Positions 39,908 to 51,509 are shown, numbered from the stretch's first letter. The stretch: DNA of 64,000 nucleotides from Planctomycetota bacterium (GCA_015075375.1 JABTUM010000002.1:853393-917392); one strand, 5' to 3'. Notes: generated by a model not told the origin, from the sequence alone. Numbers and translations are program-made.

Positions 39908-41725
<1,818 letters not shown>

Positions 41726-41901: not shown

Positions 41902-43683
41902 TTACTTCGAAGCGCGCGTGCCGTAGTGCGGCATTGTGGCGCCCAGTTCGAAGGCGCCCAAGTCGGGGGCCTCGCCATTAAATCCGTCGTTGAAGCCGGG
42001 GAGCTTAATGCCGGCATCGATGGCGTCGCTGCCCTCCTTGAGGCGCAGGTCGTTGATGGCGATCTCGAACTGGGTCTTGCCATCAGCGGGCTGTTTGATG
42101 CCGCTGGCGAAGAGTTTTTCGGGGGTAACGATGCGTACGTTTTTGTAAACCGGCGCGGTGGCGCGGACTTCTTCGACGGTTTTGTAACGCTTGTCGTTCC
42201 ACTTCAGGAAGTCGCGCCAGGGGCCGCCGCCGTAGCCGTCGTAGTCGAAATCGTTTTCGCGGCATTCGGCGATGGTTTCGTAGGCGTAGGTGCTTTCGGT
42301 GCCGATGAAGAGGTTGTTCTTCGAGACGCAGTTGGCGATAAACGGCCCGTAGCTGGCGTTGCAGGCGCCGTTCTTGACGAAGGTATTGTGGAACATCAGG
42401 ACTCCGCTGGGACCGTTGTGAAGCTTGAACGGTTCGCCGACGAGATTGTAAACGGCGTTGCGGAAGATGTAGACAGGGCCGCCGAAAGTGGGCTGGCAGG
42501 TGATGCCCTGATACACATTGGTGAAGCGGTTTTCGAAGCAGCGCGTGTTGCGGAACGAGTAGTCCATCTCGATGCCGTCATCGGTCTGCTCGCTGATCTC
42601 GTTATTGTGGAAGTCGATGGCGGCGCATTCGACGCTGGGGAAGGTGTCGATGGCGTCGGCGAATCCGGCAATCCGATTGTAGGCGATCACGTGCCCGCGG
42701 CCGGTGGCCTGGATGCCGCGGCGGCCTTCGATGCCTTTGGTGCGCGGCCACGTGGCGCGGCCTTGGATCACGCAATCGAGCACCCAGAAGCCTTCCACTT
42801 TGCCTTTGTCGTTGTTGGTCCAGGTGATGCCGTATTCGATATCCTGGATGCGCAGGCGGCGCATGACCATCCGGATGCTGCGATGTGCGACGATTCCGTA
42901 ATCGGCCTGAGTCACGGCCATGTCTTCGAACCAGACATCGTTCAAATCGCCGCACGAGATGCACCGTCCGGCTGGCTTTTCGGCGCCGGCCGTGGCATCC
43001 AGAATGGTTTTATCCATCCCCGCGCCGCGCCAGATCACGGGCTTGCCGGGTGCGCCGCTTTTTTGAACTTCAAACACACCTTTATAGGTGCCCGCGCCGA
43101 GCAAAAAGAGCGTGCCGGGCTCGGCGTGCGCATGCGCCGTGGCGAGCCCTTTGAACGGATCGGCTTCGGTCCCGCTGCCTCCGCCTTCGCCGGGAATAAC
43201 GTGAAACGTTTTGAGATCCTTGGGTGCCTGAGGTTCGGCTGCGGTACGTGCTTTGAGCAGTTTTTCGGATTCGCTGCCGTCGGGATCCTTGAGCGTAAGT
43301 CGCCATTCGTACTCGGTATCGGGTTCGAGCAGCAGAAGGCTTCCCGCAAAGAGCCAGCCGTCCTTGGGCGTGCCGACGGTGAAGCCTACCTTTTTATCGC
43401 TGCGTTCGGGCGCGCCCTTTTCGGCCCGGAACAATGGAAGCATCTCGCGCCATTCGGCGGCGCCGGCTTTGCGGTAGTGGCTCTCGACCGTCGCGTTGCG
43501 GTTGTCGTCCCCACCAATCTTCCAATAGACACCCAGGCTGCGCAGCGTTGGCGGCTCGAGTACGGGTTCGCCTTGGGGGCGGCTGGCGTTTTCGGCGTAG
43601 GCTGCGCTAGCGAACAGAGACACGAAGAGAATCATGAGAGTTAAGCGCACGAGAGGTCTCCTTTTACGTAGCCTACACCACAA
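41902..43683 (-). CDS. Secreted right-handed parallel beta-helix repeat protein (pectate-lyase-fold; possible polysaccharide lyase/hydrolase).
   Basis: It has a signal peptide. Repeated NN/HNN-containing beta-helix rungs are present (FHNNEISE, FENRFTNVYQG, FRNAVYN, FHNTFVKNG, SKNNLFIG). Confidence 0.5.
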   Translation of the reverse strand: MWCRLRKRRPLVRLTLMILFVSLFASAAYAENASRPQGEPVLEPPTLRSLGVYWKIGGDDNRNATVESHYRKAGAAEWREMLPLFRAEKGAPERSDKKVGFTVGTPKDGWLFAGSLLLLEPDTEYEWRLTLKDPDGSESEKLLKARTAAEPQAPKDLKTFHVIPGEGGGSGTEADPFKGLATAHAHAEPGTLFLLGAGTYKGVFEVQKSGAPGKPVIWRGAGMDKTILDATAGAEKPAGRCISCGDLNDVWFEDMAVTQADYGIVAHRSIRMVMRRLRIQDIEYGITWTNNDKGKVEGFWVLDCVIQGRATWPRTKGIEGRRGIQATGRGHVIAYNRIAGFADAIDTFPSVECAAIDFHNNEISEQTDDGIEMDYSFRNTRCFENRFTNVYQGITCQPTFGGPVYIFRNAVYNLVGEPFKLHNGPSGVLMFHNTFVKNGACNASYGPFIANCVSKNNLFIGTESTYAYETIAECRENDFDYDGYGGGPWRDFLKWNDKRYKTVEEVRATAPVYKNVRIVTPEKLFASGIKQPADGKTQFEIAINDLRLKEGSDAIDAGIKLPGFNDGFNGEAPDLGAFELGATMPHYGTRASK

Positions 43684-43796
43684 GCCGACGAAAAACCGAC
43701 TCCACTATTCGCCCATCGACGCCATAGAAAGGAAAAGGGCGAGCGGCCGCTTGGATTTCCGGCAGCGCTCGCCCTCCGGCTTCATCGAACAGGGGG

Positions 43797-46010
43797 TCAA
43801 GGAGCGCGTTCCAGTGTGATGGATTTCATCAGCGGCTTGGCTTCGCATTTAATGGTGTACGTTTCGGACTCGCTCTTGGCGATGTGCTCGTGCTTCTTCT
43901 CCTGCCCGTTCTCTTCCCATACGTAGGTAACCTTAATGGGAGCGAAGCCACCCTGGGGTTCGGCGTAGTCGGCGTCGATCCGGTAGTGCAACAATCCGGT
44001 CGCGTTGCGGTTCGTGCCGCTGTAGCGAATCCAGCATTTCTTCTGTCCGGCCTTGACGCCTTCGTAGGCGAAATACTCGCTGGTCGCGGCGGTCGGGCCG
44101 GGCATGCGGTGAATCTTCTCGAAATTCTCGCCGTCGTAGCTGATCGATACATCCCAGCCGTCGTTCTTGTCGCGCGCCCGGAAGTGCGTGCCCAGTCGGA
44201 TGCGCTTGAGTTCGCCGGGCGTTTCGATGGTTTGGGTGAGCGAGCCTTCACCGCCTTCGATAAAGAGCGGCCCGTCGCGAAGATTCTTAATCTCGGGCTT
44301 AAAGGCGGAGTAGTGCAGCACGCTATGCTTCTTCGACTCCTGGGCGGAGAGATTGGGTTCGATGGTGAGCGTACCTTCTTGGGGTCCGCTGCGGAACGTG
44401 ATCGTATTCTCGCCGGTATCGAGCGCCGGGAGTGGGCGCTGTGAATGCTGGACGTCGTGGTGCAGAACCAGCGCGGAAAGACCGGTGCCTGCACCCTTGA
44501 GCACGAAACGGACCCTGTATTGATACCGGCGCAGCAGCGCGTCGCTGAGGTCCAGATCCTGAGAGCCGCTTTGCGTGATGTTGCCCAGTTCTTTCCATTC
44601 GATTCCGTGCGTATCGGAGTAACTGACGGAGATGGAGCCACCGTTGCCGACCACCGCATCGAATCGTACGTGCGACTGAAGAAATACGTAGCTGGTATTC
44701 ACGGGGATGATGAGTTCGGCGGGCTGCGCGGCGTCCTTGACGAGCACTTCGGCGCCTTGCGCGCCTTCGCTCTTGGCTTGCAAGTTCTCGGCCTTAAGCG
44801 CGCCGCCACGAAACGCTCCGCTGGCCAGCGGAACGGAGTAGATGTGCTCGCCGTTACCGATGCGGCCTGGAGCCAGATCGCCCTGCTTTGGGCTGTAGCG
44901 GAGGTTATCTGCTCCGATTTTTTGCGTGAGGCAACCGGGCGTGCCGCCGCCGAACTTGCGGTTCACGTGCAAGCCTTTGTTCGACCAATTTCGGATCAGT
45001 TTTTCACCATGGCGGAGTTGGATATTAACGCGATACCCCATGGCCGTGCCGTATTCGTAAATCTGGTTGGGCTCGACGTCGTATTCCTGCATCGTGCTGT
45101 ACCATCCGTGGGTGGCCGCCGGGAACCAGCCACGTTCGTCGTACTGCTGGCAGCCGCGCAGAATCTCGGGGCCGTTCTTCCAGCCCTTTTCCTTCATGAA
45201 CTTGTAGAGCGCATCGTTGTTGCCCTGGAGGGCGGGATTTTCCTTCAGCCACCCGCGCACACCGGCGATCAGCTCGTCGACCGACGCAAATTTTCCGTCG
45301 GGCTGAGGGAAGTAGCAGATCAACGAACCGTCGAGCAACGACCAGTGCCCGTCGATCTCCACTTCCGGCACGCTGTGAGAGTTGATGATTCGGCCGCGCG
45401 CCTTTAGGCCGGATGCACGGGAGAGCGCTTCGACGTTGGAGGAAGCGCTGTTGCACATCGCGTATCCATACACGTTGAAAATCTTGATCGGATCCATCTG
45501 GCTGGCGACGCCGAGGAATTCATCCGGAGGCGTTTCCTGGTGCTGGTACGTAAAGCAAGATTCCCAAGCGATGAGCGCGCGTTCCTTTTCGGAAAGCCCG
45601 TCCTTCAGGTAGGACTTCTTCCATGCTTCAATGCTGGAGATATCTTTCACCTTATCGGAAAGGACGAACACGTTGCTGACGATGCCCGGCCCGCCTGGCG
45701 CGGCGGTTTCAGGACCTTTAACGACCACGATGGACTCGCCCGGTCCTGCTTTCGCGCGCAGGCCCAGAGGCGCGAGTACTTCTTCAAGCTGCGCGCGCGC
45801 GGACCCGGCTTTGGGCGCCGCGGCGAGCTTAAGGTCCGGCGACACCAGCGCATCGCTGTAGACGAGTTTAAGTCCACTTGCCTGCAGCGTGCGTAGCGCA
45901 TCGCCCAGCGGCATACCGGCCTGCAGTTCGGCAGCGCGGGTCCCTTGGGCGCAGAAGACCACTGCAGCCAGCAGAACCACGAGGCCCGGATTTCCGATCA
46001 CGCTCTTCAT
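43797..46010 (-). CDS. Secreted protein with an N-terminal STN (secretin/TonB N-terminal-like) signalling domain and a transglutaminase-like Cys-His-Asp core.
   Basis: A signal peptide is followed by an STN-like segment (LQAGMPLGDALRTLQASGLKLVYSDALVSPDLKL). A transglutaminase-like triad region follows (YGYAMCNSAS...NSHSVPEV...HWSLLDG). It has a GAGGAG RBS. Confidence 0.55.
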   Translation of the reverse strand: MKSVIGNPGLVVLLAAVVFCAQGTRAAELQAGMPLGDALRTLQASGLKLVYSDALVSPDLKLAAAPKAGSARAQLEEVLAPLGLRAKAGPGESIVVVKGPETAAPGGPGIVSNVFVLSDKVKDISSIEAWKKSYLKDGLSEKERALIAWESCFTYQHQETPPDEFLGVASQMDPIKIFNVYGYAMCNSASSNVEALSRASGLKARGRIINSHSVPEVEIDGHWSLLDGSLICYFPQPDGKFASVDELIAGVRGWLKENPALQGNNDALYKFMKEKGWKNGPEILRGCQQYDERGWFPAATHGWYSTMQEYDVEPNQIYEYGTAMGYRVNIQLRHGEKLIRNWSNKGLHVNRKFGGGTPGCLTQKIGADNLRYSPKQGDLAPGRIGNGEHIYSVPLASGAFRGGALKAENLQAKSEGAQGAEVLVKDAAQPAELIIPVNTSYVFLQSHVRFDAVVGNGGSISVSYSDTHGIEWKELGNITQSGSQDLDLSDALLRRYQYRVRFVLKGAGTGLSALVLHHDVQHSQRPLPALDTGENTITFRSGPQEGTLTIEPNLSAQESKKHSVLHYSAFKPEIKNLRDGPLFIEGGEGSLTQTIETPGELKRIRLGTHFRARDKNDGWDVSISYDGENFEKIHRMPGPTAATSEYFAYEGVKAGQKKCWIRYSGTNRNATGLLHYRIDADYAEPQGGFAPIKVTYVWEENGQEKKHEHIAKSESETYTIKCEAKPLMKSITLERAP

Positions 46011-46061
46011 GATTGACTCCTCTTCCCTATTTATCAGTCCACGATCCCACTGAATTATTTT

Positions 46062-47093
46062 CTACTGATTACTCCGTTGAATCAAAATCGATCCGTTTTC
46101 TTCACTAAATTCAAGTCCGCATGAAGCCAGTACCGCGTCGCAAGCCTCACGAGGGGTAAGACCGCGCACAGAGCCGTGCAGGCGCACCGACAGCACGTTC
46201 GAGCGCTGGTCTGGATTGGTCCAGCGAACTTCGAGCGCCGTTTCACGTGCGACCCAAGCCAGAAATTCGCCGAGTGTGCGTCCTTCCAGTTCGAAAGGAG
46301 GCGCGGCTTCCTGCACCCAACCCCATTCGGGTCCGTTGAGCGCGATCTCGCGGCGCGCGTACTGTCCGGCGGCATCTAGGTTAAGTTCGGTGCCTGCCTG
46401 TGCAGACTCGACGCGGCCTTCACGGCTCAAGTCCACGCGGCCTTCACGCACGCGCACGCGTAACGCCGATTCTCCCAGGCGCACCTCGAACTGCGTTCCG
46501 ACGTCCCGCGCAATCCCGTGGCGCGTACGAACCTCCACGGGCGCCGCGTCCTTAACGCCTTCCGTGTCGATGTAAACGGCCCCGCGATCGAGCTGTACCG
46601 TCCCGGCGGCCAGCAAGCGCACGTGAGTCTCGGCATCGAGCCGAAGGGAAGCGCCGCCGGCCAACCGCAGTGCTGCGCGGCATCCCGAAGGGGTGCTGAG
46701 CGATGCGCCACCGGAAAGTTCGGCGCCCAGATCCAACGCTTGGGCGCGCCGAGTGCCGGGCTGTTCGAGGCGCACGGGGCCGGTAGCGCTTTCCAGCGTG
46801 GCAACGACTCCTGCCGATGCCGGTTCGACTCCGGTGCGAAGCACTAAAAAGAGGAGCGCCGCGGCGGCCAGAGGTGCGAGAGCGAAGCTCCAGCGGACGA
46901 TCCGCCGCCTACGCACCGCGCGCTGCCATTCCGATCGAACCGCGCGCCGGACACGCGCAGCACGCTCCTTCGGAACCTCGGGCCGCGGCCCTGCGGCCCG
47001 TAGCAACCGCGCAAGCGGGTCGCGGGGCGTTTCGGGGTTGCCATTTATCGGCGATTGCTTCACGTGTGTGTCCGATTCCTGTAGGTGCTGCAT
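46062..47093 (-). CDS. FecR-family anti-sigma factor / sigma regulator.
   Basis: It has a cytoplasmic N-terminus, a transmembrane helix (WSFALAPLAAAALLFLVL), a FecR domain and a C-terminal STN-like/DUF4974 segment (GRTLGEFLAWVARETALEVRW). Confidence 0.8.
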   Translation of the reverse strand: MQHLQESDTHVKQSPINGNPETPRDPLARLLRAAGPRPEVPKERAARVRRAVRSEWQRAVRRRRIVRWSFALAPLAAAALLFLVLRTGVEPASAGVVATLESATGPVRLEQPGTRRAQALDLGAELSGGASLSTPSGCRAALRLAGGASLRLDAETHVRLLAAGTVQLDRGAVYIDTEGVKDAAPVEVRTRHGIARDVGTQFEVRLGESALRVRVREGRVDLSREGRVESAQAGTELNLDAAGQYARREIALNGPEWGWVQEAAPPFELEGRTLGEFLAWVARETALEVRWTNPDQRSNVLSVRLHGSVRGLTPREACDAVLASCGLEFSEENGSILIQRSNQ

Positions 47094-47229
47094 TTGCGAC
47101 TGAACGGCGAACGTAATTCAAGCCCAATGAGTGCACACAGGCTTATTATGCTGAGTATCTGGGGCATCTAAATCCTTCGCTATAAGCATGGCGATTGATG
47201 CTCCATGCCCTGGAACACGATGGGCAGGC

Positions 47230-47892
47230 TCATGGCTCCAGATCGGCCTGACCTCCGCATACGGCGGCGAATCCGTCGCGAAAGGCAAGCCGCGCTCGCG
47301 TCAAAAGGGACTCCGCGGCTTTGGCGCTGACTTGCAGCCGCTGCGCGATCTCGTTAACGCTGATGTCCTCCACGTACTTCCATTCCAGCACATCGCCGTA
47401 GTGCCCCGGGAGCCGTTCGAGCACCAAGCGGATGAGCGAAGCCAGTTCTTGCTTTCGCGCGGCGCCTTCGGGACTGGTATCGCCCGCGAGCGAGTCGAGC
47501 GCGGCTTGAACTTCCTCAAGGTCTTCGACTCCGCCCAAGGCTTGGGGCTGCCTGCCGCGCTTTCGGCCGTAAGCAGAGATTTCGTGGCGGCAGAACGTGC
47601 AGAGCCAAGTGAAAAGCGGCGCTTCGCCTCGGTATGTGTGGAGTTTACGAAGCGCATCGCAGAGCGTGGCCTGTACGATCTCCTCTGCAGCATCGGCATC
47701 GTAGTTCACCCGAATCAACGCAAAGCGAAACAGTCCCGGGAAGTAGGTCTGAAAGAGGCTTTCAAAAGCAGCCTCTTCGCCCGCGAGTACGCGGCGCGCC
47801 AGGCCCAAATCTCCCAGCGCCGACCGGCTCACTTGGCCCTCCCGCTCTCGCTCACCCTTTGGAGGCTGGATCGGGGGCTTATCCTTCGCCAC
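47230..47892 (-). CDS. ECF (sigma-70 family group IV) RNA polymerase sigma factor.
   Basis: Region 2 (FESLFQTYFPGLFRFALIRV...AEEIVQATL) and region 4 HTH (DISVNEIAQRLQVSAKAAESLLTRARLAF) are present. GTG start. A TATAAT hexamer sits 4 nt upstream, which may indicate a leaderless transcript. Confidence 0.85.
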   Translation of the reverse strand: MAKDKPPIQPPKGEREREGQVSRSALGDLGLARRVLAGEEAAFESLFQTYFPGLFRFALIRVNYDADAAEEIVQATLCDALRKLHTYRGEAPLFTWLCTFCRHEISAYGRKRGRQPQALGGVEDLEEVQAALDSLAGDTSPEGAARKQELASLIRLVLERLPGHYGDVLEWKYVEDISVNEIAQRLQVSAKAAESLLTRARLAFRDGFAAVCGGQADLEP

Positions 47893-48125: not shown

Positions 48126-49472
48126 ATGGCGGTGCTGCCGGCGGTTCGCGCCTACTTAGTTCGCCGATTGGCGGGCGTTCTGCGCGGCTGGCGGGGCATG
48201 CCCAAGCTGGATGCGACGAAGGAAGTCGACCCGCGTTACTTTCGCTACAGCACGATCGCCAAACACGGTTGGGTCTTGTATGTCACTCGGCTGACCCAGG
48301 CGGGGCGCTGGTTTCTGTGGCCCACCCTTTTATGGGCCGGATACAGCGGAACCTCACTCGATCTGCAGATGTACATCCCCTTTTGCTACGCCATCAGCAT
48401 GTGGGGCGTGGCGCTGGTGGCGGCATGGTGGTTCAAACCGCAGGCGGAGTTGAGAGTACACCGAGCCGAACGCATTCGGGCGGGCATGACGTTGGCGATC
48501 GACGCGGAAGTGACTCCTGCGGGAAAGCGCGCCTCGACGGACTGGTACCTGTCGGCGCACCGGCTTCCGGCCGCGCTGGATGCGACCGAACCGGAAGGTC
48601 TTCCGCTGGCCGTTCGCGCGCCCGGCGATTCGCAGCGCGTACGCTTGGGGCTTGTCGCATCCAAGCGCGGAGCGTATCGATTGCCGGCTTGGCGCGTGGA
48701 GACCGATTTTCCCTTCGGATTGATGCGGGCGTACCGGGTGTACCCCGATGAGCGTCCTTTGCTGGTGTATCCGCGCTTTCGTGCGCTTTCGCGCATGGAT
48801 CTTCCGGTGGGTCGGCGCTACCAGCCAGGAGGAGTCGCGCTCGCCAGCCACATCGGCGACAGTATGGAGTACAAGGGCAACCGGGAGTACCGCGAAGGCG
48901 ACAACGTCCGTAATATCGACTGGCGTGCGACCGCGCGGCTGGGCATGCCGATCGTGCGCGAGTACCGCGAGGAATTCTTTTTCCGCGTCGGCCTGATCCT
49001 CGATACGCATGTACCCGCACTGGCGCCGGAATCGCGCCACGAGGCGTTCGAGCAATCGGTCGCACTTAGTGCGGCCGTCAGCGATTACCTGTCACGAAAG
49101 GATTACCTTGTCGACCTTTTCGCGGCCGGGCCGAACTTGTACCACTTGATGGCCGGCCGCAGCTTGGCCTATCTGGAGCAGATTCTGGATATCCTGGCAT
49201 GCGTGGAGTCCAGTCCCGACGAGCCGTTCGAGATCCTCGAGCCCGCGTTGGCGGCGCATCTGGAACAACTCAGCACGGTTATTTGCGTCCTCATGGATTG
49301 GGACGAACGCCGGCGCTCATTTGTGTATGGTTTGGCCGGCCAGGGATCTGCGGTGAAGGTAATCATCGTGCGCCAAGGACCATGTACGCTCGATCCGGCG
49401 GGCGAAGGGCGTGCGCTGGGTGAAATCGTGGTGCTGGCGCCCGAAGACGTAGAGATGGTGGAGATGCTGTAG
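48126..49472 (+). CDS. DUF58 domain protein (MoxR-associated, vWA-like).
   Basis: The DUF58 signature YREGDNVRNIDWRATARLGMPIVREYREE is present. Confidence 0.8.
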   Translation: MAVLPAVRAYLVRRLAGVLRGWRGMPKLDATKEVDPRYFRYSTIAKHGWVLYVTRLTQAGRWFLWPTLLWAGYSGTSLDLQMYIPFCYAISMWGVALVAAWWFKPQAELRVHRAERIRAGMTLAIDAEVTPAGKRASTDWYLSAHRLPAALDATEPEGLPLAVRAPGDSQRVRLGLVASKRGAYRLPAWRVETDFPFGLMRAYRVYPDERPLLVYPRFRALSRMDLPVGRRYQPGGVALASHIGDSMEYKGNREYREGDNVRNIDWRATARLGMPIVREYREEFFFRVGLILDTHVPALAPESRHEAFEQSVALSAAVSDYLSRKDYLVDLFAAGPNLYHLMAGRSLAYLEQILDILACVESSPDEPFEILEPALAAHLEQLSTVICVLMDWDERRRSFVYGLAGQGSAVKVIIVRQGPCTLDPAGEGRALGEIVVLAPEDVEMVEML

Positions 49473-49520: not shown

Positions 49521-51509
49521 ATGCATGCGATCGCCTTGGAGAGCGAACGGTCCGACCGGGATACCACCGTATCCTGGTGGGTCTTGGGAGTCGCGGGCGT
49601 GGCTTACCTCGCGGTGGCGGTTGGCGGCGGACAAGCGCCGCTGATGGGGGTGTTGGGGCTGGCCCTGATCCTCACCAAACTGACGCCCGCGCGTCTGGCC
49701 CGAGGTTCTTGGACGGCCTGGCTGCTGCGCGTACCCATTTTCGGGGGAATCGTATTTCTCAATGTCGTGGTACCGGACATTCATTACGGGCATGGGCTGT
49801 ACAGTTCGGCCGTAGTTACGGCCGTCGCCGAATTGTTGAGCGCCGAGTTGGCGGTCCAGGCTTGGCGCGAGCGGCCGGCGGGAGGTAGGCGCGGCCCGGC
49901 CATCCTATTTCTCTCCGGAGTCGTCTTGCTACTGGCATGCAATACGTTCGACTACCGCTGGTTGCGCTGGCTGGTGCCGCTGTACGCGCTGATGGCGATT
50001 CCGGCGCTGCGCAGTCTGCGCATGCGGAAGACCGATACGGGCGGACTTTCGAGGCGAGCGTGGCTGGCGCGCGGCGCGGCTTTGACGCTCGCGCTGAGCA
50101 TCGGCGGCGGAACGTATCTGAGCCTTTGGGCTTATCGCGCGGAGATTTCGCGTCTAGGCCGCGATCTGCTTTCGGGATGGCAGCGGCGTTCCATCGGACT
50201 GACCGGTTCGCCGCGTCTGGGCGACAGGATGAGCCTGGAGCGGAGCTTGACGCGCATGCTGCGCCTCGAAGGTCCGATCGAAACGACCCATTTGCGAGCG
50301 GCCTCGTTCGAGACCTACCTGGCCGGACGCTGGCTGCCGCCGCTGCAGGAATTGGAACTGATCCCAACGGACATCTCGGAACTTTCGGTCACGGGCCAGC
50401 ACTCCCAAGTACAAGTTACGCGGCTGGTGGACGAACTTGCGTTCCTTCCCGCTCCGTTGCATTGCGCCGAGGTGCGGCCCACGCGCACTCGGCAGGTTCA
50501 GCGCGGCCTCCGCGATCCCGGATTGCTGCGACTCACGATGCCGGCCCCGTATACGTACACATTCGCGTTTTCGAACGATGCGAACCACCAGGGTCCGCTG
50601 GCCCCGCCGATCGATACCGAACGCCGCTCGCTCTGCTTGGCCGTCCCCGAGGGGCTTGACGGCAGACTGTATGCCCTGGCGCGAACGATCTTCGCCGGCA
50701 AGCAAGATACGCGGGAGAAGATTGCGGCGGTGATCGGTCACCTGGCCGCTCATCACAAGTACTCGCTTAACGCCGACCGCATGCACGGCGATCCGGTCGT
50801 CACGTTTTTACTAGAAGGCAAAGACGGGCACTGCGAATACTTCGCGAGTGCGGCCGTGTTGTTGTTGCGCTTGGGCCGCATTCCGGCGCGATACACCATG
50901 GGCTTTTATGCCCACGAGCGCGACGGGGATGGAATGCTGGTCCGGCAGCAGGATGCGCACGCTTGGGCCGAAGCGTGGGTGGAAGGAACGGGCTGGGTGA
51001 CGGTGGAGGCGACGCCAGGCGGCGGATTGCCCGATCAGATCGCTCAAGCGCCGTCCTGGGCGCGGCGGCTGTACGAACACCTCCACGACCTGATCCTGGC
51101 ATTCGGCGATTGGTGGATGAATTTAAGCTGGTTGCAGATCGGTTTGACCTTCGGAGTGATTGCGGCTTTGGTCATCACCTACCTTTGGCTGCGCGAATGG
51201 CTCGCGCGGCGCTGGGCCGCTTTGAAAGTAGTACGGAGGTCCTACACGCCGGCGGACGAGTCGCTGCGCCCGTTGGGCGCTCGTTTCGAACGCTGGCTGA
51301 AGCGGCGCGGTTTCCCCTGCCCCGAAGCGCGGCCCTGGAGCGAACATTTGGAGTTGCTGGCTCGCGAACCGGATGCGCTCCGGCGCGTAAAAGCAGAGGA
51401 TTGGGAATCCGCGCGCGCTTTTACCGAGACCTATGCGCGCGCGCGATTCGGCAGGTCGAGCGAGTCGTTGAAGGATTTGCAAGACCGGTTGCGCAGGATG
51501 GGCGGATAG
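49521..51509 (+). CDS. Transglutaminase-like membrane protein (TgpA-like: DUF3488 N-terminal transmembrane region plus transglutaminase core).
   Basis: It has multiple N-terminal transmembrane helices and the core motif GHCEYFASAAVLLLRLGRIPARYTMGFY...DAHAWAEAWVEGTGWVTVEATP. Confidence 0.8.
   Translation: MHAIALESERSDRDTTVSWWVLGVAGVAYLAVAVGGGQAPLMGVLGLALILTKLTPARLARGSWTAWLLRVPIFGGIVFLNVVVPDIHYGHGLYSSAVVTAVAELLSAELAVQAWRERPAGGRRGPAILFLSGVVLLLACNTFDYRWLRWLVPLYALMAIPALRSLRMRKTDTGGLSRRAWLARGAALTLALSIGGGTYLSLWAYRAEISRLGRDLLSGWQRRSIGLTGSPRLGDRMSLERSLTRMLRLEGPIETTHLRAASFETYLAGRWLPPLQELELIPTDISELSVTGQHSQVQVTRLVDELAFLPAPLHCAEVRPTRTRQVQRGLRDPGLLRLTMPAPYTYTFAFSNDANHQGPLAPPIDTERRSLCLAVPEGLDGRLYALARTIFAGKQDTREKIAAVIGHLAAHHKYSLNADRMHGDPVVTFLLEGKDGHCEYFASAAVLLLRLGRIPARYTMGFYAHERDGDGMLVRQQDAHAWAEAWVEGTGWVTVEATPGGGLPDQIAQAPSWARRLYEHLHDLILAFGDWWMNLSWLQIGLTFGVIAALVITYLWLREWLARRWAALKVVRRSYTPADESLRPLGARFERWLKRRGFPCPEARPWSEHLELLAREPDALRRVKAEDWESARAFTETYARARFGRSSESLKDLQDRLRRMGG

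Follow-up and report, generated by a model that had tools for sequence, protein, structure and literature searches.

A stretch of 64,000 nucleotides from a Planctomycetota bacterium (GCA_015075375.1 JABTUM010000002.1:853393-917392; hereafter the window, with positions counted from its first letter) carries an operon in which a sigma factor of the extracytoplasmic function (ECF) type and a FecR-type anti-sigma factor are accompanied by an exported STN-domain protein of transglutaminase fold. We consider it reasonably probable that this operon is an autoregulated module of ECF sigma factor, FecR anti-sigma factor and STN partner, descended from or sibling to TonB-dependent cell-surface signalling, in which a soluble periplasmic body has taken the place of the transducer's plug and barrel and the N-terminal STN domain has been retained. 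Cell-surface signalling is defined by its TonB-dependent transducer (TBDT); here the same sigma, FecR and STN parts are found with a soluble partner and, as the receptor's signalling domain is retained on that partner, signalling would be expected without an outer-membrane barrel.

An earlier reading of the window, made from the sequence alone, had placed four open reading frames (ORFs) in the order sigma gene, fecR, a gene for a 737-aa secreted protein and a beta-helix gene. We recovered all four at the same coordinates and on the minus strand, to which all operon features below belong. The longest ORF of the ECF sigma gene spans 47230..47892 and matches Pfam Sigma70_r4_2 (2e-9), Sigma70_ECF (2e-6) and Sigma70_r2 (2e-6), in agreement with its earlier assignment. 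It is followed by the gene for the FecR-type anti-sigma factor (46062..47093), by gene 3 (43797..46010), which encodes the exported protein of 737 aa, and by a gene for an exported parallel beta-helix protein (41902..43683; PF13229 1e-6, NosD 6e-5), also as first described.

Domain architecture of gene 3

The product of gene 3 has a 100% identical counterpart, annotated as "hypothetical protein", in a Planctomycetes metagenome-assembled genome, and neither the whole protein nor its separate segments matched any Pfam or NCBIfam model at E<=10, STN and Transglut_core both being missed. We assigned its domains from an AlphaFold2 (AF2) model built on an alignment of 61 homologues (predicted local distance difference test, pLDDT, 90.7; predicted template modelling score, pTM, 0.82), from conserved residues and from structural comparison with Foldseek. 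A signal peptide (aa 1-26, 45933-46010) is followed by a beta-alpha-beta / beta-alpha-beta-beta unit (aa 27-100, 45711..45932) modelled with pLDDT 87-94, and then by a flexible linker (aa 101-108). The sequence-only reading had called this first domain STN-like and had made the call depend on its detection by hidden Markov models (HMMs). The window segment itself goes undetected, but 7 of 11 orthologous N-terminal segments match PF07660 (best 2.2e-4, all below or near Pfam thresholds), and a profile of gene-3-type STN segments retrieves the N-termini of TBDTs at E-values from 1e-9 to 3e-25. Together with the topology of the model and an alignment to the C-terminal domain family of FecR described below, these results bear out the assignment. 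Intact TBDTs that belong to the same sigma group likewise give no Pfam STN match at E<=0.01; the miss in the window is thus a property of this STN subgroup. Searches of PDB sequences with profiles of the N-terminal segment and of the whole family returned chance matches only. The proteins retrieved with the STN profile were short and looked at first like free-standing STN proteins, but the two with genomic context (P0274 and P0283) proved to be fragments of TBDTs split into several ORFs.

The linker leads into an alpha+beta domain (aa 109 to ~345, 44976-45686) in which Cys186 (codon 45453-45455), His212 (45375-45377) and Asp227 (45330-45332) are invariant among the 61 homologues; the model places the cysteine at the start of a helix and the histidine at the start of a strand. 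From about aa 384-400 to aa 737 the protein is all-beta, forming three sandwich domains. Foldseek searches with the whole model retrieved beta-sandwich proteins only (reelin, Cry toxins and enzymes bearing carbohydrate-binding modules, CBMs), which is uninformative for the catalytic domain, so a second model of aa 106-400 was needed. With this model the top matches were transglutaminase-like cysteine proteases and TGases (3isr, TglA, 3kd4, 4xz7), after which came arylamine N-acetyltransferases (NATs), factor XIII and LapG; the best E-value was only 1e-3, at a probability of 1.0. The domain has in common with the transglutaminase/papain-like superfamily (3isr, TglA, LapG, factor XIII, NATs) an alpha+beta fold with the cysteine at a helix N-terminus, the histidine on the next strand and then the aspartate; it differs in its large insertions, in the three C-terminal beta-sandwich domains and in the lack of a Transglut_core profile match. 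The transglutaminase-like Cys/His/Asp core proposed earlier is therefore right at the level of the superfamily, given the invariant triad and the Foldseek matches, though PF01841 itself gives none. Neither Pfam nor the AF2 model reveals a Plug, TonB_dep_Rec or barrel domain in gene 3, whereas control TBDTs of the same sigma group do match Plug and barrel; the earlier claim that a beta-barrel is missing thus holds, the model consisting of the alpha+beta domain and beta-sandwiches.

The transglutaminase-fold body, or core, belongs to a large family with 2,445 cluster representatives (50% identity) at E<=1e-3 and 319 at 1e-30, whose members are ~50% identical across Planctomycetota, Verrucomicrobiota and Armatimonadota. 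A search of PDB chains with the family profile found no sequence relative of known structure. The analysis thus defines an unannotated protein family, with no Pfam, NCBIfam or PDB relative, and its fusions (below) mark a sensor module in phyla that have many ECF sigma factors but few characterised signals. Among the genes that neighbour stand-alone core genes are those for PIG-L deacetylases, NHL proteins, sulfatases, enolase-superfamily enzymes, amidohydrolases, GFO/IDH/MocA oxidoreductases, a heparinase II/III-like lyase and beta-helix proteins. With low confidence, we suggest that the ligand or substrate of gene 3 is a complex polysaccharide or other glycan, or a glycoconjugate. In one related locus the gene after the STN-core gene (L085:8214-10583) encodes a heparinase II/III-like polysaccharide lyase and not a beta-helix protein, consistent with an acidic-polysaccharide theme. 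Core genes also form tandem arrays, with six copies in L005 (L005:3124-16017), three in L006 and four each in L067 and L078. The arrays of L005 and L006 are followed by a beta-helix gene, and that of L078 has one ~2 kb downstream. These arrays suggest diversification as in families of carbohydrate-active enzymes (CAZymes) or sulfatases.

Relation to classical sigma/FecR/TBDT operons

The anti-sigma factor has the layout of classical FecR proteins: a cytoplasmic N-terminus, a transmembrane (TM) segment at about aa 68-85 (assigned by reading the sequence), a FecR/CJM domain (aa 132-220) and a C-terminal STN-like domain (~aa 262-343, 46065-46310). It matches PF04773 (1e-13), and a profile of the protein with six orthologues matches the periplasmic domain of PupR (6ovk_R, 1.4e-5) and the Bacteroides anti-sigma factor 4m0n, so its earlier identification as FecR-like is correct. 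The C-terminal domain is present in all seven orthologues, three of which give a Pfam STN match (best 1e-4), and its family aligns with the gene-3 STN family (hhalign E 4e-5). The window sequence itself gives no Pfam match to STN or DUF4974; with orthologues scoring as STN, the earlier description of this segment as STN-like stands, but its DUF4974 label is not supported. Residues G199-T200 are invariant among the orthologues and match in position the GT self-cleavage site cited for FoxR (PMC11637429).

To place the operon among its relatives we scanned metagenomes with the sigma alignment, which gave at least 520 relatives; the best 80 loci were kept and scanned with HMMs from our own alignments. 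An STN gene follows fecR in 39 of these 80 loci. Its STN domain is joined to a Plug/barrel in 35 of the 39, to a VWA domain in two (L116 and L156) and to the transglutaminase-fold core in one (L090); in the remaining locus the contig end cuts the gene. Two full-length TBDTs of the sigma group were confirmed by Pfam. This distribution indicates that the window operon is a rare derivative of an ordinary FecI/FecR/TBDT group, in which the STN domain was kept and the body exchanged. The closeness of the two kinds of operon extends to each part. The window sigma factor is 53-74% identical to those of sister loci, with which it has the signature GEAPLFTWLCTFCRHE in common, and 48-66% identical to those of TBDT-containing operons; for genuine sigma-FecR-STN-TBDT operons the range is 48-57%. 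L088 (sigma-FecR-STN-CarboxypepD_reg-Plug) has an STN domain 59% identical to that of gene 3, and the sigma factors of L088 and of L089 (sigma-...-STN-Plug+barrel) are 48% identical to the window sigma factor, with the signature GEA(P/S/A)LFTWLC in common. Judged by these sequence comparisons, the sigma factor, FecR and STN domain are orthologous to parts of the classical sigma/FecR/TBDT operon and the difference is confined to the body. The STN-VWA genes (L116:9820-11247, which also encodes Big_7, and L156:8642-9781) represent a third kind of STN partner, again barrel-less. In two TBDT loci the gene after the transducer (L097:11356-13035 and L115:10826-12064) has a cytochrome c-like region and both copper type II ascorbate-dependent monooxygenase domains, which hints at what those TBDT systems import or sense. 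In the literature we found no description of an STN domain on a transglutaminase-fold or VWA protein, and nothing usable on the scarcity of TBDTs in Planctomycetes.

The association of the STN-core architecture, which occurs in at least nine independent contigs from different samples, with signalling genes is strict. Wherever the DNA upstream of an STN-bearing core could be read (the window, L003-L006, L082, L083/84, L085/86, the P0033 locus and L087), the core is preceded by a sigma gene and by a gene for a FecR protein that has its own C-terminal STN domain. Within the tandem arrays STN is confined to the leading copies, namely the first two of the six in L005 and the first of the three in L006. 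We also found fusions between the core and signalling proteins. Six FecR::core fusions have neither STN domain (P0026, P0032, P0045, P0079, P0126 and P0130), one of which, P0026, lies directly behind a sigma gene whose product is 56% identical to the window sigma factor; P0123 is a fusion of FecR-STN to the core. Single ORFs of the form sigma-TM-core were identified by Pfam (P0100/P0121) and by reading of the N-terminal sequence (L025, L041 and L075). Finally, P0122 (1238 aa, from the search of representatives) combines a Ser/Thr kinase, a TM helix, a Pro-rich linker and the full core; the positions of Cys186 and His212 are substituted and the aspartate is retained, so that it looks like a pseudo-enzyme serving as the ectodomain of a receptor kinase. 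Given these fusions to FecR, sigma-TM and kinase-TM, the body behaves like a portable input domain, and the window arrangement, split and STN-joined, is most readily understood as a non-covalent version of these fusions.

The sigma gene is preceded by a conserved promoter-like element. A bipartite motif, GAAGGAT-N15-CCTC, lies upstream of the sigma gene with the same spacing in eight family loci. Across metagenomic sigma orthologue loci the consensus is CGAAGGATTT-N12-CCCTCTAAC (also written CGAAGGATTT-N12-CCCTCTAA), and 58 of 72 such loci have CGAAGGAT in the 200 nt that precede the sigma gene. The full spaced pattern gave 42 matches upstream of a sigma gene and six on the opposite strand in 0.5 Mb. 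The sole exact match in the window, P1 (47862..47887), falls within the first 30 nt of the long sigma ORF as called from GTG 47892. The sole one-mismatch match, P2 (GAAGGATTT...ACTC, 47153..47178), lies in the 136-nt spacer between the sigma gene and fecR; it is also kept in the 95%-identical relative L003, and the ACTC variant of the -10 element is seen upstream of other sigma orthologues. We thus predict that the sigma factor is autoregulated, with P1 and P2 as its promoters, and, as the window holds no other such match, that its regulon is the operon itself. Promoter and start codon bear on the earlier suggestion that the sigma mRNA is leaderless. A TATAAT hexamer does lie 4 nt before GTG 47892, as that suggestion had it, but with a conserved ECF-type promoter inside the ORF as first called, downstream of that codon, the leaderless idea fails. 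The in-frame GTG 47832 has a GGGAGGG Shine-Dalgarno sequence upstream and is consistent with the N-termini of orthologues, so the gene likely starts there. Besides this corrected start, the analysis provides a motif usable for regulon prediction. A match also lies just past the STN-VWA gene of L156 (9792). An exact match at L057:1827, adjoining a 759-aa ORF that is helicase-like in appearance, was set aside as chance.

Proposed mechanism and competing explanations

By analogy with the signalling domains of PupB and FoxA, which dock on PupR and FoxR, the STN domain of gene 3 would dock on the periplasmic CJM+STN domain of FecR; the PupR:PupB complex is the structural precedent for such docking (PMC7186176). 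Docking would shield FecR from S41 C-terminal processing proteases. Engagement of a ligand or substrate by the transglutaminase-fold body would then remove the shield, the unshielded FecR would be degraded, and the sigma factor so released would transcribe from CGAAGGATTT-N12-CCTC promoters, P1 for its own gene and P2 for fecR-gene 3. A protection model of this kind has been put forward for FoxR/FoxA, and in Pseudomonas the proteases that act in cell-surface signalling are Prc and CtpA (PMC11637429). How STN controls the proteolysis of FecR-type regulators is still debated. The invariant FecR G199-T200 fits such a model, as do genes for S41 tail-specific proteases (TSP_NTD + PDZ + Peptidase_S41), of one class with Prc and CtpA, that adjoin the sigma gene in four sister loci (L005:3-1064, L006:1533-3794, L082:1386-3404 and, for L083/84, L083:713-2764). 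A soluble partner would separate the docking-and-protection role of STN from TonB energy and transport, and offers a simpler system for testing the protection model.

Several observations weigh against the module as we describe it. Gene 3 is soluble, with no TonB box or barrel, and its STN domain sits on a flexible linker (pLDDT <50), which gives a ligand signal no evident route to STN. No S41 protease gene is found in the 64-kb window. About 70 of 79 core-family genome loci are stand-alone, with no sigma or fecR gene nearby; as most members lie among enzyme genes, the body may be primarily an enzyme, and retention of the triad in gene 3 suggests that catalysis rather than mere binding may matter. 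Further, a terminator-like hairpin (43725..43777; RNA fold -32.4 kcal/mol, z -2.7) followed by the U-rich tail UUUUCCUUUC separates gene 3 from the beta-helix gene, upstream of which a scan of the window found no promoter motif.

One rival explanation is that gene 3 is enzyme cargo under sigma control, that its STN domain is an evolutionary leftover no longer in communication with FecR, and that FecR senses something else. The enzyme-like, stand-alone members in catabolic neighbourhoods, the invariant catalytic triad and the predicted promoters, which would co-express gene 3 with sigma and fecR, are all as expected of cargo. The STN domain, however, is kept only alongside a separate FecR with its own STN and is dropped in FecR-core fusions and downstream paralogues, and even between distant loci it retains 30-53% identity; the fusions of the core, which involve three kinds of signalling protein, also argue for an input role. 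We regard cargo as unlikely. The triad could alternatively belong to a cysteine protease or amidase that is active on FecR itself, or on another envelope target in the manner of LapG, with the STN domain bringing this signal-dependent site-1 protease to its substrate. The fold does match cysteine proteases including LapG and 3isr, Cys/His/Asp are invariant in the sigma-linked forms, and no site-1 protease of cell-surface signalling has yet been identified (PMC11637429). Set against this are the kinase-fused P0122, which keeps the whole body though Cys and His are lost, the hundreds of stand-alone core relatives with no FecR nearby, the dedicated S41 proteases of several sister loci and the large CBM-like beta-sandwich domains, which suggest glycan binding; a protease acting in this way seems to us decidedly improbable.

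That the barrel of a TonB-dependent receptor was overlooked in gene 3, the outcome that the sequence-only reading had named as fatal to it, or that the STN-core junction is an artefact of assembly or gene calling, has next to no likelihood. In favour stand only the operon position and the failure of the window protein to match the Pfam STN model, but Pfam and the confident model of an alpha+beta domain and beta-sandwiches exclude a Plug or barrel, the same architecture recurs in independent contigs, and true TBDTs of the sigma group are readily recognised. We thus prefer the module with a soluble STN partner. A wider view we put forward tentatively, as quite possible: STN may be a portable docking tag by which FecR-type anti-sigma factors take their input from soluble sensors or enzymes of the periplasm (transglutaminase-fold, VWA) with no need of TonB or a barrel, and the ~630-aa body an undescribed, widespread extracytoplasmic input module in Planctomycetota, Verrucomicrobiota and Armatimonadota, attached there to anti-sigma factors, to sigma factors tethered in the membrane and to Ser/Thr kinases and most likely reporting a complex glycan.

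Among known systems, FecI/FecR/FecA, FoxI/FoxR/FoxA and PupI/PupR/PupB resemble the window operon in having an ECF sigma factor, a single-pass FecR with CJM and C-terminal STN domains, a partner with an N-terminal STN domain and an autoregulated operon. The window partner differs from theirs in being a soluble exported transglutaminase-fold protein; as it has no TonB box, plug or 22-strand barrel, no TonB-energised step or outer-membrane transport is possible. The closest precedent is VreA of the Pseudomonas aeruginosa PUMA3 system, a protein of ~23 kDa (~240 aa) that has no beta-barrel, begins with an STN-like domain and continues with a TolA/TonB-C-terminal-like domain; it is mostly soluble and so probably periplasmic (PMC2729926). 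VreA acts with VreI and VreR, its STN-like domain is thought to contact the FecR-type regulator, and the system is linked to virulence genes (PMC2729926). Compared with VreA as described, the body of gene 3 is far from TolA/TonB-C-terminal-like, consisting of ~630 aa of transglutaminase fold and beta-sandwiches; vreA precedes vreI, whereas the window has its STN partner after sigma and fecR, and systems of the window type lie in glycan-type neighbourhoods rather than being tied to virulence genes. FecR-type regulators with no TBDT have also been noted before, for example ECF242 in Spirochaetes. The variant surface-signalling circuit that the sequence-only reading envisaged, with STN on a soluble protein, is thus strongly supported by orthology, co-occurrence and fusions but less unprecedented than it implied: with VreA and ECF242 already known, the principle is not new. 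What is new is the transglutaminase-fold and STN-VWA partners, the finding that an exchange of bodies in a TBDT-type sigma group gave rise to them, the series of fusions and the promoter. Extracytoplasmic sensor domains are known as fusions to ECF sigma factors (ECF52/53-type), to anti-sigma factors and to Ser/Thr kinases. Relatives of gene 3 are similarly fused to sigma factors, anti-sigma factors and kinases; the sensor in the window is instead a polypeptide of its own, whose only link to the anti-sigma factor would be the STN pair. ECF groups with C-terminal extensions are also known (PMC7826278).

Beta-helix protein and flanking genes

The beta-helix gene probably starts at GTG 43650, which follows AAGGAG and would give a product with the signal peptide MRLTLMILFVSLFASAAYA. 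The earlier suggestion that this protein is a substrate or partner of gene 3 finds some support in adjacency, as 12 family loci have a beta-helix homologue after their core gene or genes, and in fusions: P0145 joins a beta-helix to the core, P0144 is also a fusion, and fusions of beta-helix, core and dockerin occur. Compared with PDB entries, the protein showed only insignificant similarity to alginate lyases and PL6.

Directly downstream of the beta-helix gene, also on the minus strand, lies a gene for an ABC-F type ATPase (39908-41725) with two ABC_tran domains, ABC_tran_Xtn and a C-terminal domain. Long ORFs that are ATPase-like in appearance (clusters c12 and c15) recur within ~6 kb in several related loci, for example L004, L015, L016 and L081. 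On the other side, divergent from the sigma gene, a DUF58 gene (48126-49472, plus strand) has no MoxR-like ATPase ORF directly upstream. It is followed on the plus strand by a classical Transglut_core + DUF4129 gene (49521-51509; PF01841 6e-22) whose sequence shows no relation to that of gene 3; the presence of two adjoining transglutaminase-fold genes in the window may be a coincidence.

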